Shown: positions 11,324 through 40,935 of the stretch, piece after piece
Layout of the letters: each line of letters opens with the position of its first letter
How positions within the stretch are numbered: the stretch's first letter is position 1
Assembly (NCBI GenBank): GCA_963708065.1
Contig: CAVPRZ010000009.1
Span: 28,702-92,701 of the forward strand
Length of the DNA stretch: 64,000 nucleotides
Reading direction: 5' to 3'
Source of the DNA: an uncultured Chloroflexia bacterium
Lineage (GTDB): Bacteria > Chloroflexota > Limnocylindria > Limnocylindrales > CSP1-4
Notes under the pieces: generated by a model
What the model was told of the DNA's origin: nothing
The model's database searches: none
Seen by the model: only the letters and a program-made list of their open reading frames with translations
Position numbers and translations under genes: made by a program

Positions 11324-11399
11324 TGGAGCGGGAGACGGGTCTCGAACCCGCGACATTCAGCTTGGAAGGCTGACGCTCTACCGACTGAGCTACTCCCGC
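11324..11399 (-). tRNA. tRNA-Gly (anticodon UCC), CCA encoded
   Basis: Reverse complement reads GCGGGAGTAGCTCAGTCGGTAGAGCGTCAGCCTTCCAAGCTGAATGTCGCGGGTTCGAGACCCGTCTCCCGCTCCA. The acceptor stem pairs 7/7 and the anticodon loop is CTTCCAA. Confidence 0.9.
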
Positions 11400-11442
11400 C
11401 CGCCAGCCATGGTAGTCGAAGCCGGCAGACATCTGACGGGAA

Positions 11443-12366
11443 TCACTCGGCCGCGGTGATCGGCAGCGCCCGCGGGATGAGCTCGGGAATCCGCTCGAGA
11501 AGGTCCCACAGGGTCGTCGAGAAGGGTGAGGTGGGGCGAGCGCCCGACCGCTCGACTGCGACAATCTGCCGTCGGATGGTGGCGGCTCCGTCGAGCCCGA
11601 CCTCGCGAAGCGAGCCACCCTCAATGGCGTCGGCGATCGCCGTGCCGGGGAGGAGCGCCACGCCGAGCCCGCGTTCGACCATTCGCTTTGCCGCCTCGAT
11701 GTTGTCGACCTCGGTGACCCCGCGAGGGACGACGCCGGCAACTCGGAAGAGGGCATTCGTCAGGTCGTAGTAGCTCGACGTTCGGTCGAACAGGATCAGC
11801 TGTGCGTGCTTGATCTCCGATACGTCGACCGTGCCCGCCACGGCGAACGGGTGGTCCGGACGGGCAACGAGGACGAGCTCGTCCTCATAGAGCGGGCGGC
11901 TGCGGACGCGCACGTCGCGGAGCTGGCGGACGATTCCGAGTTCGACCTCGCCACGAACCACGAGGTCGACGATCTCCTCCGAATGCCCGGTCCTCACGCG
12001 CAGCCGAACGTCAGGGTGTCTCTCCGTGAAGCGGACCAGGATCTCCGGCAGGACGTAGGCGCTGACCGCCGGAGCAACCGCCAGCGCGAGCTCACCGACG
12101 ACGCCGTGTTCGAGTTCGCGGACGAGCGAACCGCCGCTCCGGATCGCCTCGATCGCGCGGTCGGCGTGGGGAAGGAAGGCGCGACCGGCCGGCGTCAGGA
12201 CCATCCCCGTGTGCGTCCGCTGGAAGAGAGCTGCAGCGAGCTCCTCCTCGAGCGCCTGGAGCCGCGCCGTCAGCGCCGGCTGGCTGATCGAAAGGGCATC
12301 CGCTGCGCGCCGCATGTTCCCCAATCGGGCGATCTCGACGAAGCCTTCGATCTGGGCGAGGAGCAT
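11443..12366 (-). CDS. LysR family transcriptional regulator
   Basis: HTH MLLAQIEGFVEIARLGNMRRAADALSISQPALTARLQALEEEL plus a LysR substrate-binding domain. The ATG at 12366 is preferred over the TTG at 12381. Divergent from isocitrate lyase. Confidence 0.85.
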   Translation of the reverse strand: MLLAQIEGFVEIARLGNMRRAADALSISQPALTARLQALEEELAAALFQRTHTGMVLTPAGRAFLPHADRAIEAIRSGGSLVRELEHGVVGELALAVAPAVSAYVLPEILVRFTERHPDVRLRVRTGHSEEIVDLVVRGEVELGIVRQLRDVRVRSRPLYEDELVLVARPDHPFAVAGTVDVSEIKHAQLILFDRTSSYYDLTNALFRVAGVVPRGVTEVDNIEAAKRMVERGLGVALLPGTAIADAIEGGSLREVGLDGAATIRRQIVAVERSGARPTSPFSTTLWDLLERIPELIPRALPITAAE

Positions 12367-12391
12367 CGGCACCGTCTCCAAGAGACTTCAG

Positions 12392-12410
12392 TGATCAGTA
12401 GGATTGATCA
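12392..12410. promoter_or_regulatory. TGATCA-N7-TGATCA dyad in the AT-rich LysR/ICL divergent intergenic region (candidate operator)
   Basis: Seen directly. The flanking ATCATATATTCGAT imperfect palindrome lies in the only conspicuously AT-rich patch of this region. Confidence 0.25.
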
Positions 12411-12481
12411 AACACTATCATATATTCGATTGGACTGATGGACGGGAAGGTCGTAGAGTTGGCCCCCCAACGCGATGAAGG

Positions 12482-12682
12482 GTGTTTCCTATGGAACTCA
12501 ATGTCGACATGCGTCAGCCAGCGCACCAAACGACCGGCTCAGCGGAGCCTTCGCATCCGTGGGTCTTCGGCCCGAACGCGGTCGTCGACAGGCCACGCGT
12601 CACGGCGGGCGGGCTCCCCTACAGCTCCTGGGCCGAGTGCGAGTGCCCCGACGATTGCCCGAGAGACCACGAGAACGAATGA
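12482..12682 (+). CDS. small Cys-rich protein upstream of and overlapping the ICL start (candidate)
   Basis: 66-codon ORF ending ...[17 protein letters not shown]. The third-position G/C of its last ~40 codons is far higher than in the alternative frame. Its TGA (12680-12682) overlaps the ICL ATG (12679-12681). Confidence 0.35.
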
Positions 12683-15030
12683 CACCAGCGCTCAGTCAGA
12701 CCGCGGCGCCGGTGGCTTCGGACGCGGATCCTGCGACGCCGATAGCCGCTGAACGCGTGGGGATCGCGACGGACTCATTCGAAACGCAAGTCGCGGCGGC
12801 CCGCGAGTGGTTCGCAATGCCGCGGTTCGAAGGCATCGTTCGCCTCCATACCGCGCGGGAGGTCGCCGCCCAACAGGGCTCGATCCAGCCGGACTACACC
12901 GTCGCCCGAACAGCGGCGGAAGCGTTCTATGCCCGACTTCGCGAACTGTTCTCCCGGGGCGAGCAGATCACGACCTTCGGCCCGTATTCACCCGGCCAGG
13001 CCGTGGTGATGAAGCGGCTGGGAATCGAAGCGATCTACCTCGGCGGCTGGGCAACCTCTGCGAAGGGGTCGAAGACGGAGGACCCCGGTCCGGATCTTGC
13101 GAGCTACCCGCTCGGCCAGGTCCCCGACGAGGCGGCCGGACTGGTCCGCGCGCTCCTCGCGGCGGACAAGAATCAGCATTTCGCTCGCGCGAACATGGAC
13201 GACGAGCAGCGACGAGCCGCGCCGGAGGTCGACTTCCGCCCGTTCATCATCGCCGACGCCGATACCGGCCATGGCGGCGACGCCCACGTTCGGAATCTCA
13301 TCCGTCGATTCGTCGAGATCGGCGTCCCGGGCTACCACATCGAGGACCAGAAACCGGGCGCCAAGAAATGCGGCCACCAGAGCGGCAAGGTCCTGGTGGC
13401 CCAGGACGAGCAGAACAAGCGGCTCAATGCGGCGCGCCTGCAGCTGGACATCATGCGGGTGCCGGGCATCATCGTCGCCCGGACCGATGCCGAGGCCGCG
13501 ACGTTCCTCGACAACCGCAGCGACGAGCGGGACCAGCCGTTCATCCTCGGGGCGACGAACCCGGACCTGCCGAGCTACCGAGTCGGCTTTCTGGCGATCC
13601 AGAAGTCCCTCCGCGATCTCGGGCTGGACGATATCCGGGGTCACCTCCTGTTCGCGGTGCCCGACGACGACCTGCGGAAGGCCATGGCCTGGCTCGCCCA
13701 GGTCGGGCTGATGTCATTGATCGAGCGGACCGCTCGCGAGGCCGAAGGCGAGGCTCGGGTCGAGAAACTGCTTGACGCAATCGACACCCGGTACGCCGAG
13801 ATCTGGCAGGCGGAAGCGGGCCTCAAGACCTATGGCGAGGCAGTTGCCGACGTCCTGGAACTCCGGATCAGCGAGGGCGAACGGTTCGACCTGACCCTCG
13901 AGGATTGGCACGCGTTCGCCACCGGCGCGTCCTTCTCGGAAGTCCGTGCGAAGGCGGACGCACTCGACGTCCGGGTGACCTGGGATCCCGAGGCGCCGAA
14001 GACCCCGGACGGCTACTACCAGGTCCAGGGCGGGATCGACTACGCGATCGCCAAGTCTCTTGCTGCGGCGCCGTTCGCCGACCTGCTCTGGATGGAGACG
14101 AAGACCGCTGATCTCGAGGACGCACGACGATTCGCGAAGGCGATCCATGCCGAGTACCCGGACAAGATGCTCGCGTACAACCTGTCGCCGTCGTTCAACT
14201 GGGACACCACCGGCCTGGGCGACGACGAGATGCGGCGCTTCCCCGAGGACCTCGGCAAGCTTGGCTTCGTCTTCAACTTCATCACCTACGGAGGCCACCA
14301 GATCGACGGCCTCGCCGCCGAGGAGTTCGCCACGGCGCTTCGAGAAGACGGAATGCTCGCCCTCGCCCGCCTCCAGCGCAAGTTCCGACTGCTCGAATCT
14401 CCCTACCGGACGCCCCAATCCCTCGTCGGTGGAGACCGGCTGGACGCGGCTCTGATGGCCGCTTCCGGGCGGACCGCAGCGACGAAGGCGATGGGCAAGA
14501 GCTCAACCCAACATCAACACCTCGTCCAGACCGAGGTGCCGACGAAGCTGCTCGAGGGATGGCTCGCGGCATGGGCGAACCAGTGGGATCGGCCGGGAAG
14601 GATTCACGTCGAGCTGCGGCCCCACACGGCAGGCTCCGACCTCCTGGAGCTTCGAGTGCTCGACGACTCCGATGCCCTCCTCGCCAACATGATCTTCGCG
14701 AGTATCGCGGACCGTCGGGGCCGGAGCATCCTCTCGATCCGTGATCAGAACACGGCGCCATCGATCCGCCGAAGACGGCTGATGACACTCGTCCAGCTCT
14801 TCCTGATCCATCGCTACCGTGCTGACTCGCTGCACTATCTCACCCCAACCGAGGACAACCGGTTGCAGACGCAGGGGATGCAGGATCTGGGCATCTTCAC
14901 GGTCGTGCGGACCGAGATCGGTCAGATCATCGTCGCGGAGGTCGACCGGGAACGGGTCGGCCAGCTGATCCGGCCCGAAGCCGACTCCCTCGCGGAGCTG
15001 ATCCGGAAGCCGATGCCACAGCCCGCGTAG
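12679..15030 (+). CDS. aceA: isocitrate lyase, long actinobacterial ICL2-type
   Basis: Catalytic [10 protein letters not shown] motif, [20 protein letters not shown]. About 784 aa with an extra C-terminal domain, as in mycobacterial AceAb/ICL2. Confidence 0.9.
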
Positions 15031-27681: not shown

Positions 27682-28491
27682 ATGGACCAGCGACCAAACC
27701 ACGCCACCGCCCGGATCATGCTCGCCGCCGGAGTCCTGTCGGCGTTCATCGCCTCCATCTCGACCGTTGCACTGGTGGCCCTTGCCCCGACGGGTGCTGG
27801 GGGCGACACCGGAGCGGCCGCCGCGCCGGCCGCGACGAGCACGTCGACCGGAGGGACCGGCTCGCTGACCAGCTCGGGCGTCGTGCTCGACGACCCGGCG
27901 ATCGTCGCGGCGGCCGACCCGTCGGTGGTCACGATCGCAACCGACGCGGGGCGGTCGAGCGGGGTCGGCTCCGGGATCGTTCTCACCTCGGACGGGCTCA
28001 TCCTGACCAACGACCACGTGATCGCCGGCGGCGGCGCGCTGAGCGTCGCGCTGTCGGACGGACGGACGCTCGACGCGACCGTCGTGTCGGAGGACGCCGC
28101 GAACGACCTCGCCATCATCCGCGTGGCGGCGACCGGCCTCACCCCGGCCAGGCTCGGCGACTCGACGAAGGTCCAGGTCGGCGAGAGCGTCCTGGCGATC
28201 GGCAGCCCGCTCGGGACCTACACCGAGTCGGTGACGAAGGGGATCGTGTCCGGGCTCGACCGCGAGATCACCGTCCGGAGCGAGACCACCGGCCGCCCGA
28301 TCCACCTGACGGGCCTGATCCAGACCGACGCCGCGATCAACCCCGGCAACAGCGGCGGCCCGCTCATCGACGAGACCGGCGCGGTCATCGGGATCACCAC
28401 CGCCACCTCGGCGAACGCCGAGGGCCTCGGCTTCGCGATCCCGATCGAGACCGCGAAGGCGCTCATCGCCGCCGCCGAGGGCAGCGCCTGA
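27682..28491 (+). CDS. trypsin-like serine protease (S1C/HtrA-like, no PDZ)
   Basis: TNDHVI (His), NDLAIIRV (Asp), GNSGGPLID (Ser); N-terminal TM anchor. Confidence 0.85.
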   Translation: MDQRPNHATARIMLAAGVLSAFIASISTVALVALAPTGAGGDTGAAAAPAATSTSTGGTGSLTSSGVVLDDPAIVAAADPSVVTIATDAGRSSGVGSGIVLTSDGLILTNDHVIAGGGALSVALSDGRTLDATVVSEDAANDLAIIRVAATGLTPARLGDSTKVQVGESVLAIGSPLGTYTESVTKGIVSGLDREITVRSETTGRPIHLTGLIQTDAAINPGNSGGPLIDETGAVIGITTATSANAEGLGFAIPIETAKALIAAAEGSA

Positions 28492-28586
28492 TCCGCATCC
28501 CCCAGCGCCCTCGTCCATGAGCACCTGCGATCGGGCACCCCGGGTCGTGGAGCCTGCCCACGGTCCCAAGTCGCCTAGGACACGCT

Positions 28587-28785
28587 GGATATCAGCACCA
28601 TTGCTATCGGGCGCACTTCCCGACCCGCGTTCCTCCCGCCGCTGAATGAGACAGACGTCTGTGCCGCCTGATATGAGCGTCACTGCGTAGCGAGGGTGGA
28701 TAACCGGCGGATCTCGGGGCGGCCGAAGGGTTCCTGCTCGCCAGGCTGCCGCCACAGCGGTCTGCTAAGAATGGTGCTGATATCC
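28587..28785. other. 199-nt element closed by a perfect 16-nt inverted repeat (candidate structured RNA or MITE-like element)
   Basis: GGATATCAGCACCATT at 28587-28602 and its exact complement AATGGTGCTGATATCC at 28770-28785. Internal palindrome ACAGACGTCTGT. No credible ORF. Lies between the protease gene and msrA. Confidence 0.5.
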
Positions 28786-28888
28786 GGGGCCAGCACAGAC
28801 AGCGTTCGGAGTCGCGTCTGTCGCCTCGGTGGCGGACGCCGGACGAGGCGCGGTGGACAGGACGTCGGCCGTGATTACCATCAAGTGC

Positions 28889-29575
28889 ATGCGTTTCCTG
28901 TTCAAGGCTCCGGCCATGCCAACGCCGACCGAGGCTCTGCCCGGCCGGCCCGACCCCATCGACATCCCCGAGCGGCACTACGTCAACGACGCCCGCCTCG
29001 CCCCGCCGTGGCCGGACGGGACGCGGACCGCGGTCTTCGGTTTCGGCTGCTTCTGGGGCGCCGAGAAGACGTTCTGGCAGACACCCGGGGTGATCTCGAC
29101 GGCCGTCGGCTACGCCGGCGGGTCGACGCCCAACCCGACCTACGGCGAGGTGTGCAGCGGGAAGACCGGCCACGCCGAGGTCGTGCTCGTCGCCTACGAC
29201 CCGGCGAGGGTCTCGTACGAGGAGCTCCTCCGGGTCTTCTGGGAGGACCACGACCCGACCCAGGGCATGCGCCAGGGCAACGACGTCGGGACCCAGTACC
29301 GCTCGGTCATCCTCGTCGGGAACGAAGCCGAGCGACGGATCGCCGAGGCCTCACGGGCCGCCTACGCGGAGCGCCTCAAGGCCGCCGGCTTCGGCGACGA
29401 TCACGACCGAGATCGTCGACGCCGCGCTCGACGCCGTTCTACTACGCCGAGGACTACCACCAGCAGTACCTGGCGAAGAACCCGAGGCCCGGCTTATTGT
29501 CCTGACCACGCGACCGGCGTGAAGTTGCCGGACGACTTCGCCATTCCGGTCACGCCGTTGCAGTACGTCGACTGA
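28889..29575 (+). pseudogene. msrA: peptide-methionine (S)-S-oxide reductase MsrA; three frame breaks in the last 200 nt (net zero)
   Basis: [14 protein letters not shown] active site, [36 protein letters not shown]. The segments [25 protein letters not shown] and [12 protein letters not shown] lie in three successive frames. Confidence 0.85.
29479..29575 (+). repeat. R0: msrA 3' end in place (..[34 protein letters not shown])
   Basis: Read directly. It has two extra codons relative to the other copies. Confidence 0.9.
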
Positions 29576-29697
29576 GCCCGACGCTTCGACGTCACGTCCT
29601 GATAGGAACCGACTCCGACGCAGGGGCCGCTGACATCACGGACTCACCGGGTGATGCCCTTGCGACCTCGGGTGCCTCAGGGCACTATCCCGTTGAG

Positions 29698-29982
29698 ATG
29701 GGACCGTTACGAAGCAGATGGGCGCGGGGGGCCGTGCTCTGGACGCTCGCCCTGTTGGTCGTCGCAATCGGGCTTGCCATCTTTGCGTCCGCGAGTCTCG
29801 TTGACGCTCAGCAGAGGTGCTTCGTCGAATTCCCGTCCGTCGCCTGCCCTGACGGACAGGATTGGCGGGTGGGGCTCCTGACCTTCGCGTTCCTCGGCGT
29901 TCCCCTCGTCTGGGTCGTCGGACTGGTCGTGGCCATCGCCGGTCGCGCTGCCTCGAAGCGGCGGCCGGAGCGCCGCCGGTAG
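29698..29982 (+). CDS. cassette 1 cargo: small two-TM membrane protein (94 aa)
   Basis: AVLWTLALLVVAIGLAIFA and LLTFAFLGVPLVWVVGLVVAIAG flank a Cys-containing loop. The basic tail ends 31 nt before R1. Confidence 0.5.
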   Translation: MGPLRSRWARGAVLWTLALLVVAIGLAIFASASLVDAQQRCFVEFPSVACPDGQDWRVGLLTFAFLGVPLVWVVGLVVAIAGRAASKRRPERRR

Positions 29983-30013
29983 TCTCGGGCAGTACGCTGA
30001 CTCGTATCTTCGA

Positions 30014-30109
30014 GAGAACCGAGGCCCGGGAGCGTATTGCCCGGACCACTCGACCGGCGTGAAGCTGCCGGATGACTTCGTGGTCACCCCACTGCAGTAC
30101 GTCGACTGA
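30014..30109 (+). repeat. R1: msrA 3'-end copy ([34 protein letters not shown])
   Basis: Direct alignment to R0; differences are mostly at third codon positions. Confidence 0.9.
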
Positions 30110-30225
30110 CTACGGGCCCGAGCTAGAATTCGCGTGCGCTCCTGCAGAAGCGGAAGCCGACGTGCGGCCACATGGGCTTCATGCCCACCACCGCCGGGTT
30201 CGGCCGGACCGCGAGGTCACGACGG

Positions 30226-30900
30226 TTACTGGCGCCGGAGCACGATGGCTACGCGGGTCCCCGACATGACACATCGCGCAGGTAGCTCCGGCGCAACCGG
30301 GCAGGCGTGGGCATTGCCACCAGGGTGCGTCGCGAGGAAACGAGTCAGCGACCGCGGGCTGGTCATGGCCGTCGGCCTCTGCTCATTCTCGCTGGGCGGC
30401 TGCACGCGGTCCGAGCGCACGTAGTTGAGGAACACGTGGTCCCGGAGCTTCCGGGCAAGGAGCGCGTTCTCATCGTCTCCGATGGCCGCGAACACGGTCT
30501 CCAAGATGTAGGCGTACATCGAGGTCGCGATGGCCTCGATGTCCTCGGGATGCCACGGGCTCTTGTCGCCTACCCACTCCCACTCGCTCGGGCCGATCTC
30601 ATCGGCGGTCGCCTTGAAGCTCGACGCATCTGTGTGCTCCCACGGGCTGAAGGTCTTGTAGGCGTACACGTAGGCGTCGTTCATCACGATCTTGTGGCCG
30701 GGGTACTTGGTGATGACCTCGTTCGCCATACGTCGGAGGTTCGGGAGGATGCGGTCCTTGCCGTAGTTCTTCCCCAGCTCCTTCAGCTTCGCGAACGCGG
30801 CGTCACGGGTGGCCTCCTTGATGGGGGTCGGGTCCTTGGGGTCAACCGGGATGGACGAGCCACGGTCCTTCGCGTGTTCGCGGATGTCGACACCCGGCAG
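30226..30900 (-). pseudogene. cassette 2 cargo: 5'-truncated gene of unknown function
   Basis: The frame is open, with coding-like third positions, from 30945 downward. There is no ATG/GTG/TTG before the internal Met at 30729. The coding-like sequence starts abruptly at the edge of repeat A1. Confidence 0.45.
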
Positions 30901-30903
30901 CCG

Positions 30904-31026
30904 CGGAGACCGTCCCGTCGGTCGCCTTCCGATGGGTCTGCTGATTTAGACTCCCGGCGGGCTACTCTCCTGACCGCCGGATGGGCAGGGCTCCGCCGTC
31001 CGTTCGCATGGTCGTCACGAGCAGCA
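30904..31026 (+). repeat. A1: about 120-nt imperfect direct repeat, copy 1
   Basis: Shares with A2 CGGAGACCGTCCC, CTCCCGGCGGGCTACT and a 34-nt identical block CCGCCGGATGGGCAGGGCTCCGCCGTCCGTTCGC. Contains the small dyad CCGGCGG..CCGCCGG. Confidence 0.8.
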
Positions 31027-31126
31027 GCCTCATCACGCGACTCGCGTGCCGTACGTTGAGCACTCTGACGGCCAATCGTCGCCGCCGGATGCGCAGGATG
31101 GACGCCTCCCCGGACCCCGGTCAGCC

Positions 31127-31244
31127 CGGAGACCGTCCCATCGCCTCCGCCTTCCGATTCGGTGCAATTCAACTCCCGGCGGGCTACTTCCCGCCGCCGG
31201 ATGGGCAGGGCTCCGCCGTCCGTTCGCTGGTCGTACGACGCAGC
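31127..31244 (+). repeat. A2: about 120-nt imperfect direct repeat, copy 2 (offset 220-224 nt from A1)
   Basis: As for A1. Confidence 0.8.
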
Positions 31245-31601
31245 GTGCCGGCTCGCGAAGTCGGCTGAGTCGAGGTAACGCCGGACGGTCATTTCGATGG
31301 CCTCGACTGGTTCGTCCGCATTGCGTCTCAGGTCTTCGTAGTACTCAAACCCCTCAGGCGTTACATCGAAGAGTCGGTCACCGCTTCGGTTGTAGTGGAG
31401 ATTGACGAGGCCGTAGCGCGCGAGCATGTCCACGTCTGAGGCGAGGATGCGTGGCTGAACGGAGCTGTGGGGGTGCATCAGGAAGTCGCCCGCGCTTGTC
31501 TCAACCACGAGGAAGCTGTCGCGCTCCTCTCTCGGCAGGCCGCGTATCGCCTCAACGGCGGTGACGAGGAGGCCCTCCTGCGCTTGTTCGAGTCGAGCCA
31601 T
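31245..31601 (-). CDS. cassette 2 cargo: hypothetical protein (3' end uncertain)
   Basis: ATG at 31601 (MARLEQAQEGLLVTAVEAIRGLPREERDSFLVVETSAGDF...). The ORF stays open through A2 and A1 down to 30783, but beyond about 31245 it becomes low-complexity, so the real stop is unclear. Confidence 0.4.
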
Positions 31602-31708
31602 TAGGAAAGAATAGGGGTGAGCCCGGTCACAAAGAACGCGACGACGTCTGTCGGGTAGCGGTTGGTCTTGCCGAGGTCGTTGTGAACGAGCAATACCCTG
31701 ACCTGTCT

Positions 31709-31796
31709 GAGAATCCCGGGCTACTGCCCGAACCACGCGACCGGCGTGAAGTTGCCGGACGACTTCGTGGTCACACCTTTGCAGTACGTGGACTAA
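31709..31796 (+). repeat. R2: msrA 3'-end copy (..[29 protein letters not shown])
   Basis: Direct alignment; TAA stop. Confidence 0.9.
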
Positions 31797-31982
31797 GCGT
31801 CCCTACTTGATCAGCGCTGGATCTCGCGAGGCTCCTCGAAGAGTTCCGTCGACGTCGGCCCTTCCGAACTTACGAGCGCACCGATGAGTCAGACGGCAAG
31901 TCACCAGCCGCCGAGACTACCGGATCAGGGTGCGCGTCCGCGGCCGGCGAGGGAGACGAGGTCGCCTACCCGTCATCGAGGA

Positions 31983-32915
31983 CTACGTGCCGAAGACGAG
32001 CGTCCCGCCCTCCCCGAGCCTCAGCGTCAGCTGGCCGCCCTCGATCGCGTAGCTCGATGCGTTGCCGAGCCCGACGACGTAGAGATCGCCCATCGAGCCG
32101 GGCGGGCAGGCGGCCAGCGTCGACGGTCCGGGCAGGATCGAGATCGACCCGCCTCCCGGTTCGAGGCCTATATCCGTGCGACCATCGCCGCGGTGTACCT
32201 CGTACGTCCCGCTGACCTGGTTGCAGTCGGCCTTTGCGTTGAACGTCCCGTCCGCCTGGAACTCGATCGTGTATTTCGACTGGTCCGCCTCGGGGACCAC
32301 GCCCTGGAACGCCGGCGTCGTCTCCGTGATCCCGGTCAGCTTCCACGTCTTGCCGAGCAGCTCGGCGGGCGGGCTCGCGCCCGGGGCCAAGGACGCCTCG
32401 GCGCTCGACTGGGCGCTCGACGGAACGGCCTGCAGCGGGCCGAACGTCATCGTGCCGCCGTCGGTCAGCGCGATCGTCAGCGTGTCGTTCGTCACCGCGT
32501 ACGTGGCGGCCTCGGTCAGCGAGTGGGCGAAGATCGATCCGAAGTCGCTGTCGGGACAGAACGCGAGCGTCGGCGCACCCGCGGTGATCGTCAGACCGTT
32601 TCCGCTCGTCTTGTAGGTCCCGGCGATCTGGTTGCAGGCGGCGGTGCCCGAGTACGTGCCGTCCGTGTTGATCGTGATCGTGTAGTCCGGCTGTTGGTAG
32701 GCCGGGACCACGCCCTGGAACGCCGGCGTCTTGCTGGTCACCGCGGTCAGGGCCCACGGCTTGCCGGTCAGGGTCGGTCCGCTCTGCTTGTCGGCGCTTG
32801 CTCCGCTGGCAGCGGGCGCCGACGCGGTCGTCGCTCCGGACGATCCGGCGCCGCAGGCGGTGAGGAGCGTCGCGGCAATCGCGAGGGCGATGCCGAACGG
32901 TGCGGTGAGTTTCAT
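31983..32915 (-). CDS. cassette 3 cargo: lipoprotein with two META (HslJ-like) domains
   Basis: MKLTAPFGIALAIAATLLTAC lipobox with AAGGGGGA 7 nt upstream. Two units of the form W.LT....P.FQGVVP......YTI.F..DGT..G.A.CN...GTY.... Confidence 0.8.
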   Translation of the reverse strand: MKLTAPFGIALAIAATLLTACGAGSSGATTASAPAASGASADKQSGPTLTGKPWALTAVTSKTPAFQGVVPAYQQPDYTITINTDGTYSGTAACNQIAGTYKTSGNGLTITAGAPTLAFCPDSDFGSIFAHSLTEAATYAVTNDTLTIALTDGGTMTFGPLQAVPSSAQSSAEASLAPGASPPAELLGKTWKLTGITETTPAFQGVVPEADQSKYTIEFQADGTFNAKADCNQVSGTYEVHRGDGRTDIGLEPGGGSISILPGPSTLAACPPGSMGDLYVVGLGNASSYAIEGGQLTLRLGEGGTLVFGT

Positions 32916-33107
32916 GCGGGACGTCCCCCTTGGCGGGTGGCGTTGTCGGTCGAGCCGACCGGGTCGGCGAACGCTGCCGATTGTCTGGGCGCCCGCCACG
33001 GCGCGCGATGGTGCCACTGCTCTAGCTGAGAATCCACTCTGAGCCCTCAAATCGCGTGCATGGATACGAGCATATATGGCCCACTCGAACGGCAGCCTGA
33101 CTTGCCT

Positions 33108-33197
33108 GAGAATCCCCGGGGCTACTGTCCGAACCACGCGACCGGCGTGAAGCTGCCAGATGACTTCGTGGTCACGCCGCTCCAGTACGTCGACTAG
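33108..33197 (+). repeat. R3: msrA 3'-end copy ([32 protein letters not shown])
   Basis: Direct alignment; TAG stop. Confidence 0.9.
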
Positions 33198-33277
33198 TCC
33201 TGCCCGCCCGAAGACGATGAGACCCTCCCGACGCCGGGAGGGTCTCTGTCATTCGGTCGAACGTTGGGGAACAAGGG

Positions 33278-34111
33278 TTGGACCAGGAATCGTTGCGCCG
33301 CGACATATGCTGGGATGAGATGACCGCGGCCCCGGATCCCGGACCAGACAACGAGGAGTTCTGGCGCAACTTCCTCACGCGTGGCGATGCGATGGAGCGC
33401 AAGGTCAGGCGTGTCTTCAAGCGCATCCCCCAGGGGCCGCGCTGCAAGTTGTGCGCGGCACCCTTCGCCGGCGTCGGTGCGCCACTCATGCGCATGATCG
33501 GGAAACGGCCCTCCGACAAGAATCCGACCATGTGCAATTCCTGCTTCGCCTTCATGGTTCGACACCACGGCGGTGCTGAGATCGAATGCAGCTTCCTGTT
33601 CGCTGACGTGCGCGGCTCGACCACCATCGCCGAGGGCATGTCCGCGACCGACTTCCGCAGCCTATTGGACCGTTTCTACTCGACGGCGTCTGCAGTCGTT
33701 TTCGATCACGACGGCAGCGTAGACAAGTTCGTTGGCGACGAGCTCGTGGCGATGTTCTTTCCGCTCCTTAGTGGTGAGCAGCATGCAGCGCGCACGGTGG
33801 AAGCCGCCCAGGCCCTGCTGGTGGCCACAGGACACGCCGATCCGGGTGGGCCGTGGCTGCCACTCGGCGCGGGGGTGCATACCGGTCCCGCGTGGGTCGG
33901 AACGGTGGGTGACAGGGCGCACGTCGAGCTGACCGCGCTGGGCGACACCGTCAATACGACGGCCCGGCTCGCATCGGTCGCCAAGGTCGGCGAGATCCTG
34001 GTCACTAAAGCCGCTGCCGATGCTGCTGGCCTAGATCCCGCGCTCGAACACCGATCTCTCGAGCTCAAGGGCAAGGAATTCCCCACACAGGTCGTTGTCG
34101 TCCGAACTTGA
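33278..34111 (+). CDS. cassette 4 cargo: class III adenylate/guanylate cyclase with N-terminal Cys4 zinc-ribbon-like segment
   Basis: CKLCAAPF...CNSCFAF, then ECSFLFADVRGST...KFVGDELVAMF...GVHTGPAWVG...LGDTVNTTARL. TTG at 33278; alternative ATG at 33320. Confidence 0.8.
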   Translation: MDQESLRRDICWDEMTAAPDPGPDNEEFWRNFLTRGDAMERKVRRVFKRIPQGPRCKLCAAPFAGVGAPLMRMIGKRPSDKNPTMCNSCFAFMVRHHGGAEIECSFLFADVRGSTTIAEGMSATDFRSLLDRFYSTASAVVFDHDGSVDKFVGDELVAMFFPLLSGEQHAARTVEAAQALLVATGHADPGGPWLPLGAGVHTGPAWVGTVGDRAHVELTALGDTVNTTARLASVAKVGEILVTKAAADAAGLDPALEHRSLELKGKEFPTQVVVVRT

Positions 34112-34185
34112 TATGACCGAGAGTGCGGGCGAGCCATACGAAAGCAGCTCTGCTAGCCCCAAGGCTGGCCATAATCTGACGCGCT

Positions 34186-34275
34186 GAGATTCCCCGGGGG
34201 TACTGCCCGGACCATCGGACCGGCGTGAAGCTGCCCGATGACTTCGTGGTCACGCCGCTCCAGTACGTGGACTGA
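34186..34275 (+). repeat. R4: msrA 3'-end copy ([32 protein letters not shown])
   Basis: Direct alignment. Confidence 0.9.
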
Positions 34276-34322
34276 ACCAACACCGCTCAACCGTGAGCCG
34301 GCCGGCCGGTTGACCGACTACG

Positions 34323-34943
34323 ATGCCGGGAGGAGGGCGTGAGATAACCGACCCGATCGCGGACATCATCGGCGACTACCGAGCGTTCGCGGCCCAGCAG
34401 CGCGACCGGTTGCTGGCGCGTGGCATCGACATCGCCCTGTACGCGCTCAGCCACCTCGCATACCGGGTGCCCGAGTGGGACCAGTACGTCCAGGTCCGGA
34501 CGCTCCTCGAGCGCCACGCGACCTCGAATCGGGAGAACGTCTGGAACGGCCGCCCGATCTCCTTGATCGTTCCCGCCAAGCCGCTCGAAGTCCTGGAAGG
34601 CCAGGTCGTCCCGCTCATCGAGCTCATCCCGCCCGTCCACCAGCGCGTCTACAAGATGGGGCTGGAGCACCTCGGCGTCGTGGTCGGCGACACGTTCGAC
34701 ACGTTCGTCGGAGCCCACAAGCCCGTCCTGACGGGCCAGCAGTTCCAAGGCCCGAACAGCACACCCGACCCTGTCTACATCCTGTTCGAGGACTTCACCC
34801 ACGTGAAGTTCTATCGACTGTCACTGCAGGCATCCGTCGAGATCGATGGTGGCCGGTTCGAGGACGGGTTCCACCACGTCGACGACTGGGTGCCCCAGCG
34901 GCTGGTCACGGCGACCGGCCCCAACCCCCTTCCCCGGGACTGA
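34323..34943 (+). CDS. cassette 5 cargo: VOC-fold, YecM-like metalloprotein
   Basis: LSHLAYRV, GLEHLGVVVGD and THVKFY are spaced as in YecM/VOC proteins. The assignment is from memory of the family, not a search. Confidence 0.55.
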   Translation: MPGGGREITDPIADIIGDYRAFAAQQRDRLLARGIDIALYALSHLAYRVPEWDQYVQVRTLLERHATSNRENVWNGRPISLIVPAKPLEVLEGQVVPLIELIPPVHQRVYKMGLEHLGVVVGDTFDTFVGAHKPVLTGQQFQGPNSTPDPVYILFEDFTHVKFYRLSLQASVEIDGGRFEDGFHHVDDWVPQRLVTATGPNPLPRD

Positions 34944-34978
34944 CGTGGCCGGGTGACCGACGCGACAGTAGTCTCGCG

Positions 34979-35074
34979 GAGAACACAGGCCCGGGAGCGT
35001 ATTGCCCGAACCACGCGACCGGCGTGAAGTTGCCGGATGACTTCGCGGTCACGCCGCTGCAGTACGTGGACTGA
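34979..35074 (+). repeat. R5: msrA 3'-end copy ([34 protein letters not shown])
   Basis: Direct alignment. It is the distal-most copy, so under an integration model it is the candidate ancestral 3' end. Confidence 0.9.
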
Positions 35075-35255
35075 CGCCTATCGGCGGGGTCCTGATCGCT
35101 GTCGCGCTGCTCAGCCAGCTGGCATAGCCGACCGGGCTTCGTCGGACCGTTCATGACACTCGATCCGTTTGACGGGCCGACCCCGCGGCGCCTAGGCTCA
35201 GGTCACGGGCGCTGCGCCGCATGCGCCAGGTTGCCCGAGGGATGGAGGGCTCGCA

Positions 35256-35513
35256 ATGATTCGGCGGATCACCGGGATCATCCTTGGAGTGGTGGCCTTC
35301 TTGATCGTGTACTGGCTCTCTGGCGGGACGGCGACACCGGCCACGCCGAACTGGGCACTGGCGATCCTCGTCGGGCTGGTGGTGGCGCTCATCTGGCCGT
35401 GGATCATGGGCCTGATCGTGGTCAGGCGCACTCGGCAGCGCCGCCAGAACGAGATCGACCAGGAGGTCCAGAAGCAGCTCGCGCAGCAGCAGAACAACCC
35501 ACCACCCTCCTGA
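35256..35513 (+). CDS. small two-TM membrane protein (85 aa)
   Basis: ITGIILGVVAFLIVYWL and ALAILVGLVVALIWPWIMGLIVV, followed by a basic/Gln-rich tail. Confidence 0.5.
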   Translation: MIRRITGIILGVVAFLIVYWLSGGTATPATPNWALAILVGLVVALIWPWIMGLIVVRRTRQRRQNEIDQEVQKQLAQQQNNPPPS

Positions 35514-35862
35514 TCCCCGGGCCAGGCGCGCCGCACAGCAGCCCCACCTGGCGGTCGAAGGTCGGCGCGTCGAACGGCTCGCGGTCGAGCGGCGAGGGCG
35601 CGAACGAGATGCCCCAGAAGTCGGTCGAGCCGACCCCCGGGTACCGGCCGATGATGTCGAGGTCGGTCTGGGTCGCGAGCTCCGAGCCCAGCCGGACGCG
35701 CCTCGCGACCGGGAGGTATCGCGGCACGTAGCGGGCGAGCTTCTCGACCGCCTCGTCCTCCGTCTTGCCGCCCCGTTCGAGACCCGGCCAGTCCGCCGCG
35801 ACGGCGACCCAGCGCTTGCCGCGCGTGGGCTGTTCGATGAGCACGCGAAGCCGGGACGTCAT
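35422..35862 (-). pseudogene. hypothetical protein, probably 3'-truncated or frameshifted
   Basis: The N-terminal 100 aa look protein-like (MTSRLRVLIEQPTRGKRWVAVAADWPGLERGGKTEDEAVEKLARYVPRY...). The last 45 aa are low-complexity and overlap the opposite-strand TM ORF. Confidence 0.35.
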
Positions 35863-35868
35863 CCCGCG

Positions 35869-36687
35869 TCACGCCCCGGTCGAGTCGCGCTCCCACGCGC
35901 GCCCGAGGACCCACAGCGCGATGTTCAGGGCGAGCACCCAGATGAAGAGCACGCTCAGGGCGATGGCGGCAAGCAGCAGGATCGAGCGGATGCTGTCGAC
36001 CGTGCTGTCGGCCTTGGCCTGCAGAGCGGCGAGGCTGGCCGACAGGCCGCGGACCGCCGTGGCACCGCCCGAGATCGCGTCCTTCACCGGGGTCGCGCGG
36101 CCCGCGAGGGCCTCCGCAACGGCGGCGCCCGGCTGGGCGTCCGCGAGGCTCGTCCACGTCGAGACGATCGCGTCGTCGATCGCCTGGATCTTGGCGTCAA
36201 CGGCGGCCAGCGTATCTCCCGCACCTTCAGGGACCCTTGTTCCGGGAATGATCCGGGCGATCTGCTGGAGCGTCGACATGACGCCGACCACGTTCTCGCG
36301 GGCCTCGGCGTAGCTGACGCGCGCCTCGAGATACCGGTCCGAGATCTGCCCCAGGCGGGCCTGCAGGTTCGACAGCCGGGCCAGGTCGGGGGTGCTGCTG
36401 GCAGCCAGCGCGGCGGCGTCCGCCCGCATCGTGTCGATCGCGGCGACGGCCTCGTCGAGCCGGCCCGCAACCGCATCGGTCGCCGTGATGGCCCGGCCGA
36501 ACCCGCTGTTGACGTCGTTGCCGAGGTCGTCCACGGCCCGGGAGACGGTCCCGAGCCCGAACCACACGGCGACGATGATCAGGGCGCAGATGACGACGCC
36601 GATGATGCCTGCGACCTTGGCCGCGACGGCCTTCCGCGGCGCGCGCTGGGAGGTGACGGGCCTGAACATCGGCGAGGTCTCGGACAT
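35869..36687 (-). CDS. membrane protein with N- and C-terminal TM segments and long Ala-rich helical ectodomain
   Basis: Internal ATG at 36687 of the 702-aa composite ORF. Contains VAGIIGVVICALIIVAVWFGLG and LLLAAIALSVLFIWVLALNIALWVLG. Confidence 0.6.
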   Translation of the reverse strand: MSETSPMFRPVTSQRAPRKAVAAKVAGIIGVVICALIIVAVWFGLGTVSRAVDDLGNDVNSGFGRAITATDAVAGRLDEAVAAIDTMRADAAALAASSTPDLARLSNLQARLGQISDRYLEARVSYAEARENVVGVMSTLQQIARIIPGTRVPEGAGDTLAAVDAKIQAIDDAIVSTWTSLADAQPGAAVAEALAGRATPVKDAISGGATAVRGLSASLAALQAKADSTVDSIRSILLLAAIALSVLFIWVLALNIALWVLGRAWERDSTGA

Positions 36688-36809
36688 GGGACGGTCTCGG
36701 ATGGGAGTTGGTGGGGCGATGATGACAGGTCCGGGCAATCGTCCGGCCCAGGCTGTCAGGCCCCGGGAGAGCAGCCTCCCGGGGCCTTGTTGACGCCCCC
36801 AGTCGGACG

Positions 36810-37977
36810 CTACTTGCGGCTGTTGTAGCTCGCGAGCCCTTGCCAATCGCCCCGAACCGCGTACGACGCCTGGGTCGGCCATGTATCGAGGCTCGAGGGT
36901 GGCAGCGCCCCGCCCTGCGCGATGATCTTGCGCAGATCCGAGGGATCGGTGTGCTCGAGCTCGGCGTAGGTCGTCACGCCGCCGTCGGACAGGATCGAGG
37001 AGATCCGTGGCCCGATCCCGTTGAGCTGGGTCAGGTCGTCGGGCGCCGCGGCCTTGGCCGCCTTCGACTTGCGTCGCGCCGCGGTGGCTCGGCTCGGAGC
37101 CTCGCTTGTTGTACTTCATCAGGCCCTGCCAGTCGCCCTTCGCGGCATAGGTCGCCTGCATCGGCCACGACGCCACATTGGCGGGCGGCACCATGTCCGC
37201 CTCGTGCAGCGCATGCCTGAGTTGCGGCTCGTTGGCCTCGGCCAGCGCCGCATAGGTCGTGATCCCCGCCGTCGCCAGCGCGTCGCTGGCCTTGGGCCCG
37301 ACGCCGGAGAGCTGGGTCAGGTCGTCGGCGGTCGCGGCTGGCGCCGCAACCGCAGCGGGCGCCGCCGCCGCGGCCGGCGTGGCAGCCTCAGCCGGCGCCT
37401 CCTCGGGAACTTCCACCTCGTAGTCCGACACGACCTCGGCGCCGCCGAGCTGCTCCACCGCCGGGTCGACGAGCGCCTTCAGCGCGGCTGCCTTCTCAGG
37501 GGGCAGCGTGCTCGAGATCAGGAGGGCCTTATCGGTCGTGAGGGCCTGCTCGATCATCCCGATGGATCCGGCCCAGTTGCCTTCATACAGGATGAAGAGG
37601 GCGCTCTTCCCCTTGTCGAGCTCCTTCGTGACCTGCCGCATGAACTTGTCGTCGATCCCGATGTCGTGCATGCGGTTTCGCAGCCCATTCAGGACGCCAC
37701 CCGCGGCGCCGCCGACGACCGCACCGGCCGGCCCGAGGACGATCGCGCCGACGATGACACCGAGCCCGGCGCCACGGGCGGCGCCCTTCGCGCCGCCGAG
37801 ATCCGCGGTCTGATGAACCTTGACCCGGAACCTGGTCCGGTCGGCGATCGCCGCATCGACGATCTTGACGTTGGGGTCGACCTCGTCGATCTCCTGGATC
37901 CGCTTCAGGAGTCGCCTCGACTGCTTGCCCGTGTCCAGCACGAACGCGGCAAGGGTCTGACCGTACTCGTCGCTCAT
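36810..37977 (-). pseudogene. DUF1269-like membrane protein fused to two helix-hairpin-helix repeats, frame break near 37090-37100
   Basis: Gly-zipper GAARGAGLGVIVGAIVLGPAGAVVGGAAGG. Repeat 1 is DDLTQLSGVGPKASDALATAGITTYAALA...WPMQATYAAKGDWQGL. Repeat 2 (DDLTQLNGIGPRISSILSDGGVTTYAELE...WPTQASYAVRGDWQGL) is in another frame and ends at TAG 36810-36812. Confidence 0.7.
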
Positions 37978-38346
37978 CTATCCAGTCTCCTCTCAGCAGG
38001 GACTGTAAGGCCCCACAGTTGTGGTTACGTGCATCTTGTCTCGGCTGGAATCAACGCATCGGACTCCACCAGTCGGATCTCGCCCTCGGGGTCGGCTTTG
38101 ACGAGGGCTGCGGGAGGTCAGTCACGTCGTGATCAGGGTGTTCGTGGCGCTGAGGCGCCCATCAACGGACAGTGACCGAGCCTTCAGACACCTCCTCCCT
38201 CGAGCCTGCCGGATGGCCATCTCCGAGGTGCGTGAGGCCCTCGAAAAGGTGCCAGGCGGACGTCCGACGATGCTAGGCTTCGGCGGCCCGCCATGCAACC
38301 ACGATCGGGCGCTCGGATCGGAGCGGGCATCGCACCGAACGGAGGG

Positions 38347-38883
38347 TTATCCGCCGGCCGCGGCAAGGATCGCCGCGAGATCGTCGACGTGGTCCTCGTA
38401 GTGCGCGGTCGTCTCGCTGAGGAAGAAGCGCTGGTGATCGGCGTGCTTGAGCCAGCGACTCTCGGGCACGACCGTGAGGTAACCGCGGAGCTGTCCCGGC
38501 AGCGTGCCGAATTGGGCGCGCAGGTCAGCCATCGAGAGCGCCGCCCAGCGTGCATCGATCTCGGCGTTCACGACCTCCCCGCCTCGCGTATCCCAGTCTG
38601 CGTCCGCGCGCTCCTTGGCGGGACTCGTCTCGTTCACTGCCAGCTCCGTGGCGACGGCGAGGGCGACATCGTGCCCGGAGAGCAGATGTCCCATCAGCTG
38701 GCGACCCGACCAGCCGTGAGCGCCGGCGACGGGGACGCCGAGTTGTTCGTCGCTCAGGTCCGCGAGCGCCTCGAAGGGCCGGAAGGCCTCGCGCTCTTCG
38801 TCGAGGAAGTCGAGTGCGTCGAGATACATGCGGTGCATCGTAGCCGCCACGACCCGGACCACCCTGACGGCGATGAATCCCAA
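38347..38883 (-). CDS. DinB-family protein
   Basis: WSGRQLMGHLLSGHD ... TTAHYEDHVDDL. The start is more likely the Met at 38838. Confidence 0.7.
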   Translation of the reverse strand: MGFIAVRVVRVVAATMHRMYLDALDFLDEEREAFRPFEALADLSDEQLGVPVAGAHGWSGRQLMGHLLSGHDVALAVATELAVNETSPAKERADADWDTRGGEVVNAEIDARWAALSMADLRAQFGTLPGQLRGYLTVVPESRWLKHADHQRFFLSETTAHYEDHVDDLAAILAAAGG

Positions 38884-38965
38884 CGACTATGGATCCACAT
38901 CGCGACGGGCGTGACGTGTCCGATCGGAGTCGGGGTGGATCCCGGGGCCACCTAGACTCGACGCC

Positions 38966-39414: not shown

Positions 39415-40929
39415 CTAGGAGATCGTCCGGAGGCTCGGCCAGATCGTGCTCCACGGGGCGCGCAGGCCCGTGCACACGGACACGGCCTTTCCCTGCTCGC
39501 CGTTGTCGATGCCGAGCCCGTTGTCGATGTGCGCGACGTCTCGACAGCCCACGAAGAACTGACTCCAGTCGGCCGGTCTCCAGTCCCCCACGTGCACCAC
39601 GACCGTTCGATCGTCCGGCGGAGGTCCCCAGTCCCAGAACGCGTTGTGGCCCGAGTAGACCGGGGGCAGCCCCGTGCCGAGCAGCACGAGCGGGCTCGCC
39701 TCGCTGTAGTCGTTGGTCAGGATCACCGCGTGCGCGCGCTGGTCGGCAGGTAGCGAGGCCACCACCTGCTCCACCGTCGCGACGAATTCCGGCCAGCCGA
39801 TCTGGTTGGCCGTATCAGGGACGGTGGCCGGGAGTGAGGTGTTGGCGTACGTCGCCACCGGCAGGATCGGCAGGGTGAGCAGCACGATGAGCGCGCTCGA
39901 GAGCACGGCGGCGGCGGCGAAGCCGACGGCCTTCAGAACCGCATGACCACGGGCCAGCCAGCCGTCGAGGAGGATCGCGCCGGCCGCCATGAACACGGGC
40001 ACCGTGCCGACGGCGTAGTAGGCCTTGCCACCCGAGATGGTGACAAGGGCGAGCGCGACGACGGCGGCGATCCCGATCGCACGCCACGGCGCGGCGTTGC
40101 GCGCGAACAGCACCCAGGCCAATCCGGCGGCGCTGATCGGGAACAGCAGCGGCCCCGTGAACAGCCACAGCAGCGGCACGATCTGAGCACGGTTGTCTGC
40201 TGCGTAGCCCGAGATCTGGGCCGCCATCGTGAGCTGCGGCCAGCCATGGGTCGCCTGCCAGGCGAGGTTGGGCGCCCAGAGCAACAGCGCGATCCCGATC
40301 GCCCCCCATGCCCATGGTGAGCGCACGACGTCCCAGCGTCGGGCGAGCACGAGCCCAACCGCGAGCCCTGCGCCCAGGAACAGGAGCGTGGCCTTGTTCT
40401 CGAGCCCGATCCCCGTCACGACGCCCAGGGCGAGCCATAGCCGCCGGTTGCCGCCGTCCAGCAGCTTCACCAGCAGCCACAGGATGATCGCCCAGGCCAG
40501 CAGGTCGGGCTCAGTGGTGGTGTCAAGATGGCCCGCCCCGAGGTAGCCCGAGAGCGCGGCGGTGATCGCCGCGAGGACCTGCGCCCGTCGCGACCCGCCA
40601 AGGTCACGCGCGATGAGGGCGATCAGGACCACGACCAGCGCCATCTCGATCGCGGGCAGCAAGCGGACCGCGGTCGGCGAGACACCGAGCAGGGCCACGG
40701 ACGCGGCCGACAGGAGCGGGGTCAGCGGCGGCTGGTCGACGTAGCCGAAGGCCGGGTGCTGGCCCGCCACGACGTAGTACATCTCGTCGCCGTGGAAGCC
40801 GTAGGCGCCGGACACCGCCAGCAGCCCGGCGATCATGAGACCGGCAACGAGGAGCACGGGCCAGGGGACGGCGAGCGGCGGGGAGCGGCGGCTGGAAGTC
40901 TCGGCTGTCAAGCCGTCGAGCTCGAGCAC
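39415..40929 (-). CDS. glycosyltransferase family 39 (ArnT-like) membrane protein
   Basis: 504 aa, multi-TM; FHGDEMYYVVAGQHPAFGYVDQPPLTPLL motif. Intact. Confidence 0.85.
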   Translation of the reverse strand: MLELDGLTAETSSRRSPPLAVPWPVLLVAGLMIAGLLAVSGAYGFHGDEMYYVVAGQHPAFGYVDQPPLTPLLSAASVALLGVSPTAVRLLPAIEMALVVVLIALIARDLGGSRRAQVLAAITAALSGYLGAGHLDTTTEPDLLAWAIILWLLVKLLDGGNRRLWLALGVVTGIGLENKATLLFLGAGLAVGLVLARRWDVVRSPWAWGAIGIALLLWAPNLAWQATHGWPQLTMAAQISGYAADNRAQIVPLLWLFTGPLLFPISAAGLAWVLFARNAAPWRAIGIAAVVALALVTISGGKAYYAVGTVPVFMAAGAILLDGWLARGHAVLKAVGFAAAAVLSSALIVLLTLPILPVATYANTSLPATVPDTANQIGWPEFVATVEQVVASLPADQRAHAVILTNDYSEASPLVLLGTGLPPVYSGHNAFWDWGPPPDDRTVVVHVGDWRPADWSQFFVGCRDVAHIDNGLGIDNGEQGKAVSVCTGLRAPWSTIWPSLRTIS

Positions 40930-40935
40930 GACCGG

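Follow-up and report, generated by a model that had tools for sequence, protein, structure and literature searches.

In a 64,000-nt stretch of contig C9 (the whole of which is called the window here), the msrA gene is followed by a tandem array of small gene cassettes bounded by direct repeats of the msrA 3' end, and no recombinase gene was found in the array or elsewhere in the window. The window belongs to a metagenome-assembled genome (MAG) of 3.58 Mb, 72% GC and 11 contigs, C9 being 584 kb long. The MAG is probably a long-read assembly, is 72.6% complete by marker genes and contains numerous frame-breaking indels. The array starts in msrA (28829-29575, plus strand; Pfam PMSR, 3.2e-49), whose PMSR domain is intact to residue ~182. 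Its left neighbour is an HtrA-like serine protease gene (27682-28491, plus strand; Pfam Trypsin_2, 3.7e-35), which is conserved and syntenic in relatives at 73-80% identity, and its right frame is a conserved PMT_2 glycosyltransferase gene (39418-40935, minus strand; Pfam PMT_2, 7.7e-23). Between them, the final ~100 nt of msrA occur six times as direct copies, ending at 29575, 30109, 31796, 33197, 34275 and 35074. The copies are 85-95% alike over ~100 nt, and the repeat has no other occurrence across the assembly. Every copy keeps the reading frame, which runs through YCP(D/N), 18 further residues and a stop codon.

The first copy, R0 (29455-29575; nhmmer 1.9e-26, tblastn), lies within msrA as an attL-like repeat and encodes 26 residues. 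The displaced copies are R1 (30013-30109), R2 (31689-31796, TAA stop), R3 (33091-33197, TAG stop), R4 (34179-34275) and R5 (34977-35074), the last well-kept one. All six are on the plus strand, and the displaced copies were found by tblastn and nhmmer, R3 by nhmmer. The five cassettes delimited in this way span 0.4-1.7 kb, and each ends at its right side in a short non-msrA sequence, referred to below as the arm. Cassette 1 (cargo 29576-30012) carries a 94-aa open reading frame (ORF) with two transmembrane segments (29698-29982, plus strand), with its arm at 29984-30012. Cassette 2 (30110-31688) carries two ORFs without a Pfam family (30226-30729 and ~30786-31640, both minus strand), an internal duplication of ~220 nt and an arm at 31685-31712. 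Cassette 3 (31797-33090) carries a META-domain lipoprotein gene (31983-33137, minus strand; Pfam META, 2.7e-30) and an arm at 33084-33111. Cassette 4 (33198-34178) carries a gene for a zinc-ribbon and class III nucleotide cyclase protein (33278-34111, plus strand; Pfam Guanylate_cyc, 5.6e-13), with an arm at 34159-34186, and cassette 5 (34276-34976) a YecM-like gene of the VOC fold (34323-34943, plus strand; Pfam YecM, 1.7e-15), with an arm at 34953-34985. The cargo strands of the five proximal cassettes thus read +, -, -, +, +.

A preliminary description of this DNA had set the right border of the array at 35.9 kb. This is too short, because cassette-like modules run to ~38.9 kb. The stretch 35075-38868 is a decayed distal array of five modules, each of which is found singly behind msrA in relatives, re-ordered or inverted, at 83-97% identity. 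Module 1 (35153-35535) carries an 85-aa ORF with two transmembrane segments and ends in a truncated repeat start (~35516-35535, by comparison with locus L011). It is followed by module 2 (35531-35862, minus strand, 146-aa ORF), module 3 (35861-36740), module 4 (36797-38339, minus strand, DUF1269/HhH gene) and module 5 (38339-38872, minus strand, 179-aa ORF). At 38869-38945 (plus strand) there is a degenerate msrA end of an old type (..ATGVTCPIGVGVDPGAT*), recognised by reading the sequence and by a weak nhmmer match on the correct strand. Similar relics (YCPDHSTGVSCPVGLGV) occupy distal positions in loci L010, L016 and L024, and the end at 38869-38945 is probably the original msrA end, displaced to the far border of the array.

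Several irregularities were seen in this region. The msrA frame is lost shortly before the in-gene repeat (29390-29500), where a conserved 16-residue stretch lies in a different frame from the ORF. The breaks are likely to be assembly indels, since frame-split genes, Xer among them, occur elsewhere in this assembly, and several frame changes within ~100 nt could also mark a genuine msrA pseudogene. A 702-aa ORF (35869-37977) reads through modules 3 and 4, which are separate in relatives; this long frame is not genuine and results from high GC or from the loss of a stop codon. In cassette 3, a solo copy of the arm and core (CTGCTCTAGCTGAGAATCC) lies at 33017-33035, 80 nt upstream of the arm that precedes R3 and with unrelated sequence after it. 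It may be the scar of an aborted or deleted cassette.

The same locus was compared in related Ca. Limnocylindrales MAGs, mostly from Microflora Danica (MFD). A search of 60 relatives, supplemented by a pattern scan of species-representative genomes that added 84 loci, gave after de-duplication 87 non-redundant msrA loci, with copy counts limited to the fetched stretch. Among the 60 relatives, the repeat is present at msrA in 16 of 36 family genomes, with 1-8 matches each. In the whole set, 51 of the 87 loci carry 2-7 copies, and the copy number ranges overall from 1 to at least 7-8. All arrays are at this single locus and in one orientation. In one locus, L075 (CAVVCZ010000004.1:136001-144000), one msrA-end copy is opposite to the other two, which suggests an inversion inside the array. 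The median length of the 99 cassettes is 684 nt (interquartile range (IQR) 457-1077), and they mostly contain one or two intact genes. Their cargo is diverse (46 Pfam families in 150 ORFs), consisting of small enzymes and membrane proteins such as VOC/glyoxalase, SnoaL, YecM, SRPBCC and TMEM175 proteins and F420H2-dependent reductases.

Cassettes are re-ordered, sometimes inverted, and common to different species. Those that are shared are often 91-100% identical where msrA is 70-86% identical. In 572 genome pairs sharing a segment, the median excess of cassette identity over msrA-core identity is 6.9 points, and in 180 pairs the cassette exceeds msrA by more than 10 points, for example 95% versus 69%. 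In the window, cassette 5 also occurs in three other loci (L009, L012 and L021) at 80-92% identity, and R3 with its 146 following nucleotides matches the in-gene end of L016 msrA at 97.5-100% identity, against only 85% for the two msrA genes. Meanwhile, in L023 the PMT_2 gene lies only ~1.3 kb from msrA. Even the closest pair of loci, L019 and L020 (msrA 96.6% identical), differs in copy number, content and order. The msrA-PMT_2 interval is an insertion hotspot filled by small cassettes. It is hardly credible that the segments are fixed, non-mobile neighbours of msrA whose repeats are old local duplications, an account that fits the single locus and single orientation of the arrays but is refuted by the L019/L020 pair and by the 180 pairs with excess cassette identity; the preliminary description had named conserved neighbourhood as a finding that would overturn mobility, and the variable copy number, order and content contradict it.

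The preliminary description had also claimed that no mobility gene exists in the array or in the 64-kb window, and the claim held in every search. In a six-frame profile search of the whole genome, contig C9 has no match to PF00589, PF00239, PF07508, PF01548, PF00665, PF12835, PF01797 or PF01609, and IS110, Integrase_1, HUH Y1 and DDE_Tnp_1 are absent from the entire genome. Among 106 stop-to-stop ORFs between 28.7 and 40.9 kb, no mobility family is found in the best 25 of 34 Pfam families (E ≤ 0.05), the remaining nine being all weaker than E 0.012. The same ORFs match seven unnamed PHROGs families (E ≤ 0.001), none of them for mobility. In addition, a hidden Markov model (HMM) built from 20 tyrosine recombinases of the genus found nothing in the six frames of the whole window at E ≤ 1, and as a control it recovered the three tyrosine recombinases of the genome on C4 and C11. 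A degraded integrase fragment in one of the segments, a result that by the preliminary description would have refuted its claim, was searched for in this way and none was found. The remainder of the window is housekeeping in character (glucan phosphorylase, isocitrate lyase, HemL, PxpA and others).

The absence extends to the relatives. The 87 msrA loci have no match to the genus-built HMM or to two local serine recombinases, and a phmmer search with the local CcrB-like protein gave no match in the array loci. PF00589 was surveyed in 43 whole genomes (19 of the genus and 24 further array-bearing ones), and it never occurs within ~100 kb of an msrA array. The missing recombinase is thus a genuine feature of the whole clade and not the outcome of a local deletion. 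Every genome compared is a MAG; incompleteness and indels make the absence at the genome level weaker than that at the locus.

The structure of the repeats points to where cassettes are joined to msrA. In-gene copies are preceded by msrA sequence, CAGCAGTACCTSGMSA and then AGAAYCC in ~70 tabulated copies; the upstream context examined reads CAGTACCTSGMSA followed by AGAAYCC. Displaced copies are preceded by a common non-msrA arm of ~25 nt, with the consensus GGCAGTACGCTGACCTGTCTG, and then by the same AGAAYCC. The arm is seen in displaced copies only, and its distinguishing features, a GCTGAC insertion and a G instead of an A before AGAA, are absent from the in-gene copies examined. Over 66 displaced copies, the arm has a conservation of 0.62, as compared with 0.89 in the repeat and 0.37 in the cargo sequence upstream of the arm. 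When one cargo is found in several contexts, the repeat, counted from about AGAA to its stop codon, tracks the cargo on its right, and the arm tracks the cargo on its left. Because a distinct non-msrA arm lies upstream of the displaced repeats, the junction is placed at AGAAYCC, the Lys-Asn-Pro codons, and we infer a crossover at or beside this motif, as would result from an attP x attB exchange. The junction lies between two short inverted boxes (GCAGTA ... TACTGC), whose spacing is 22 nt in msrA and 28 nt in the cassette site.

The displaced copies also retain the character of coding sequence. A 24-codon frame with its stop is kept in 38 of 50 displaced and 71 of 80 in-gene copies, the variation of displaced copies falls mostly on third codon positions (161 versus 55 and 42), and all three stop codons are used. 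The kept frames and third-position variation indicate that the displaced copies were once working gene ends.

With a probability of roughly 0.55, we favor a site-specific insertion of cassettes that bear a replacement msrA end, with the recombinase supplied in trans. The left side of each cassette is a replacement for the last ~33 msrA codons, from AGAAYCC to the stop, and its right side is the conserved ~25-nt arm. In a putative circular form of the cassette, arm and repeat would join into an attP-like site of ~125 nt, and exchange with the matching msrA site would let the cassette's own end complete msrA while the earlier msrA end is shifted downstream. Since each insertion would displace the previous end, ends would accumulate in the order observed. 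A dedicated recombinase, if one exists, would come from a helper element that is non-resident or not binned with the MAGs; otherwise a host enzyme would do the work. No enzyme is found at the array or at the same site in relatives, which suggests that the mover acts from elsewhere. The preliminary description had proposed mobile segments moved in trans, and of this proposal the mobility agrees with the shuffling of cassettes at identities above that of msrA; the enzyme in trans was not found.

Several results weigh against insertion by an enzyme in trans. First, no candidate enzyme was found. The preliminary description had pointed to the co-occurrence of recombinases with msrA-end arrays across genomes. 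The recombinase content does not follow array size, and co-occurrence therefore names no candidate: G013, G018 and G003 have arrays and XerC/XerD only, and the recombinase-rich G012 has no detected repeat copy. Second, no integrated helper element was found at msrA in any of the 87 loci, which is odd if one exists. When viral contigs were scanned for the patterns of repeat and arm, 0-1 chance matches came up, in contigs of 56-58% GC, and the one scan of metagenomes for an attP-like unit gave three short contigs without recombinases. Third, the placement of the junction is based on few informative cassette pairs; the aggregate identity profile has no power to place the crossover because the repeat is too conserved, and one of its sets also included an in-gene copy that had been classed wrongly. 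In L024 the in-gene repeat is chimeric through an internal crossover, its right ~27 nt being 99% identical to a cassette of another genome and its left part belonging to a different subtype. Fourth, the site has no conserved hairpin or covariation. Finally, all the genomes have estimated completeness of 61-92%.

A hairpin or attC-like site was considered and rejected, as the stem GCARTA/TAYTGC shows no covariation (Fisher p=1, against both the adjacent repeat and the cassette's own repeat). Folds of single-stranded DNA for five arm-plus-repeat units on both strands gave z values of -2.8 to +0.75 with no common long hairpin, and no match to Rfam was found at E ≤ 0.1.

A somewhat different reading is that the arrays belong to a separate gene-capture system, integron-like in its working, in which cassettes bearing a ~125-nt recombination element (arm plus spare msrA end) would be inserted at and excised from the conserved msrA coding motif by an unlinked enzyme, either XerC/XerD or a recombinase that current profiles fail to recognise. 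We hold this to be possible, though doubtful.

Less likely than insertion in trans, but still to be reckoned with, is a turnover free of any dedicated recombinase, an explanation that lies beyond the two offered in the preliminary description. Here, RecA-type homologous recombination between the ~100-nt repeats would loop out cassettes and re-insert them, or would bring in DNA from relatives, and the arm, which all cassettes would have inherited, would be no more than the eroded left margin of a longer duplication of ancient origin. The locus without a recombinase, the several genomes with nothing beyond XerC/XerD, the likeness of the repeats and the chimeric L024 repeat are all in keeping with it, as is the resemblance of the arm to msrA (GCAGTAC..CTG...AGAA) with a 6-nt insertion. 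However, 100 nt at 85-90% identity is a poor RecA substrate, and homologous recombination leaves unexplained how dozens of unrelated cargos (the 46 Pfam families mentioned above) came to lie between one and the same pair of boundaries. The displaced-only features of the arm, namely the GCTGAC insertion and the G for A before AGAA, also have no explanation under it.

It is unlikely that the host XerC/XerD proteins move the cassettes, as they do with integrative mobile elements exploiting Xer (IMEX) and the pdif modules of Acinetobacter. XerC/XerD are present in all 43 genomes searched and are the sole tyrosine recombinases detected in the array-bearing G002, G003, G005, G013 and G017, among others. 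In addition, serine recombinases (PF00239, PF07508) are absent from the array-bearing G003, G013, G017 and G018. However, the repeat has no canonical dif-like 11-6-11 site, and the sites that bound the cassettes are direct, not inverted. A dif-like pattern, in canonical or relaxed form, is absent from the repeat and from the assembly, which thus offers no canonical dif motif for comparison, and the clade's own dif may differ from the canonical one; the GC skew is too flat to locate the terminus.

A further point against XerC/XerD comes from a second array on C9, outside the window (C9:299304-305861; L109:3304-9860). A tRNA-Gly(CCC) gene is followed there by three partial copies of its 3' half that start in the anticodon loop, with a conserved arm of ~90 nt per copy and units of 1.0-3.5 kb, on a contig without integrase. 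Like arrays occur in G003, G004, G012, G013 and G018. The core of this array is unrelated to that of msrA, so a single enzyme for both is unlikely. Moreover, these arrays indicate that integrase-less att arrays are common in the clade, which for insertion in trans favors helpers that are non-resident or unbinned over a single host enzyme. A likeness of the msrA arm (TACGCTGAC) to the tRNA-Gly array arm (TACGCTCAC) was dropped, being within estimated chance. Other multi-copy repeats were rejected as att arrays (C4:584 kb, C8:86 kb, C9:434 kb and C11:377 and 692 kb), since they resemble protein or low-complexity repeats.

Very improbable is the idea that the segments are relics of full-size elements (a phage, an integrative and conjugative element (ICE) or an integrative and mobilizable element (IME)), each stripped of its integrase and most of its genes. 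The distal decay, with the truncated repeat at ~35516-35535 and the degenerate end at 38869-38945, would suit such relics, and units of this kind exist among the ssrA islands of Dehalococcoides (PMC3146451). However, none of the 87 loci contains an integrase or a recognisable fragment of one, which makes the loss of an integrase from each cassette implausible; the preliminary description had likewise judged five separate integrase losses to be less parsimonious, and the survey bears this out. The small sizes with their tight range, the predominance of one or two intact genes and the recurrence of identical small cassettes with the same limits across species also speak against relics.

The msrA units show the feature that characterizes site-specific elements: they carry the 3' end of their target, which keeps the gene whole. 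Their closest known counterparts are integrase-less units in tandem accretion arrays, namely cis-mobilizable elements (CIMEs) and the Dehalococcoides ssrA islands. In Streptococcus thermophilus, ICESt1/ICESt3 at fda provide the example of CIMEs with tandem accretion at a protein gene's 3' end (reviewed in PMC5704250). Like CIMEs, the msrA units lie in tandem between att-type direct repeats of the 3' end of a protein gene and have no integrase or transfer genes. However, CIMEs range in length from a few kb to tens of kb, derive from a known ICE and lie beside it, whereas the msrA units are 0.4-1.7 kb with 1-2 genes, number up to 7-8 per locus, and have a cognate integrase-bearing ICE or IME at msrA in none of the 87 loci.

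The Dehalococcoides ssrA islands come from the same phylum; 15 of 31 lack an integration module, and a CcrB-like DsiB/DsiA module occurs in 16 (McMurdie et al. 2011, PMC3146451). They too are stacked in tandem behind a conserved single-copy gene, with a direct repeat of that gene's 3' end closing each island, and a short conserved non-target motif upstream of the displaced repeat marks the insertion point, by the same reasoning as applied here to msrA. In contrast, they are large, carry rdhA genes and use a tmRNA gene with a 20-bp repeat, while the msrA arrays have a coding repeat of ~100 nt and no module in any unit, and the only CcrB-like gene of the genome lies at tRNA-Glu on another contig.

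The preliminary description had likened the segments to integron cassettes and to clusters of attC sites lacking integron-integrases (CALINs). The likeness lies in the small, mostly single-gene cassettes at one chromosomal site, the cassette-borne element of ~100-130 nt, the array without integrase and the cargo of small enzymes and membrane proteins (VOC/glyoxalase, SnoaL, YecM). The analogy fails in other respects, as no IntI lies near the locus, the repeat works as a gene end and is not an attC palindrome (no attC-like hairpin was found), genes occur in both orientations, and insertion rebuilds a housekeeping gene instead of filling an attI behind a promoter. The msrA array is not an integron, none of the tests for integron membership having given a positive outcome.

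Meanwhile, small recombinase-less gene modules are also found among the Xer-dependent IMEX and pdif modules, for which the use of host enzymes in trans is characteristic (PMC9947245, PMC11705084). Their boundaries are 28-bp dif-like XerC/XerD sites, often inverted, and none is visible at msrA by the canonical pattern. In the tycheposon islands of Prochlorococcus (bioRxiv 10.1101/2020.12.28.424599), as at msrA, repeated integration at a conserved gene pushes older units inward and scatters partial target copies. Tycheposons, however, have their own tyrosine or large serine recombinase and tRNA or tmRNA targets, and the tRNA-Gly(CCC) array of C9 is closer to them than the msrA array is. What sets the msrA arrays apart from the known cases is the miniature single-gene unit, the ~100-nt coding repeat that rebuilds msrA, and the lack of an integrase-bearing partner in 87 loci. 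In the literature accessible to the analysis, no paper was found on msrA-end arrays or on integration into msrA.

The usual explanation for a gene-capture array is a recombinase next to it. Here, a well-formed and fast-changing cassette array occurs without a recombinase at the locus in about 90 genomes, some of which show dimer resolvases only. In essence, an absence has been confirmed, and its significance hinges on the enzyme. If an unlinked or host enzyme is at work, bacteria would have a second general route, beside integrons, by which single genes are gathered at one fixed position, and soil Chloroflexota that are abundant and uncultured would be using it. Surveys that look for mobile DNA by way of integrase genes would then overlook such arrays. 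If homologous recombination alone is responsible, the end of a conserved gene would act as a handle of homology that can be carried about and through which genes are exchanged.

The recombinases that the genome does contain lie on other contigs. PF00589 matches two Xer-type genes on C4, one of them frame-split, and weakly a divergent gene on C11 (C11:462332-463570); the serine recombinases and rve are on C11 as well. At C11:458540-463570 (L111:3540-8571), a CcrB-like large serine recombinase and the divergent tyrosine recombinase (which scores 23 bits against Pfam and 53 bits against the genus-built model) stand beside tRNA-Glu(TTC). The pair, which comprises the only non-Xer recombinases of the genome, recurs in G001, G012 and G014 and is probably a single integrated element. 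The tyrosine recombinase was rejected as the mover of the msrA cassettes, as its homologues are found in those three genomes only and not in the array-rich G013, G018, G003 and G005.

Two further features of the window were noted. Just upstream of msrA lies a 199-nt element (28587-28785) with 16-nt terminal inverted repeats. The genome has one copy of it, and the fetched loci of relatives have none, so that it is not a multi-copy miniature inverted-repeat transposable element (MITE) here. Far to the left, in the region 11324-15027, a tRNA-Gly(TCC) gene (11324-11399, minus strand) stands beside a stretch of lower GC content (65-68%) with an 857-aa ORF. The window holds no partial tRNA copies, and in G012 and G015 a tyrosine integrase adjoins a tRNA-Gly-like sequence.

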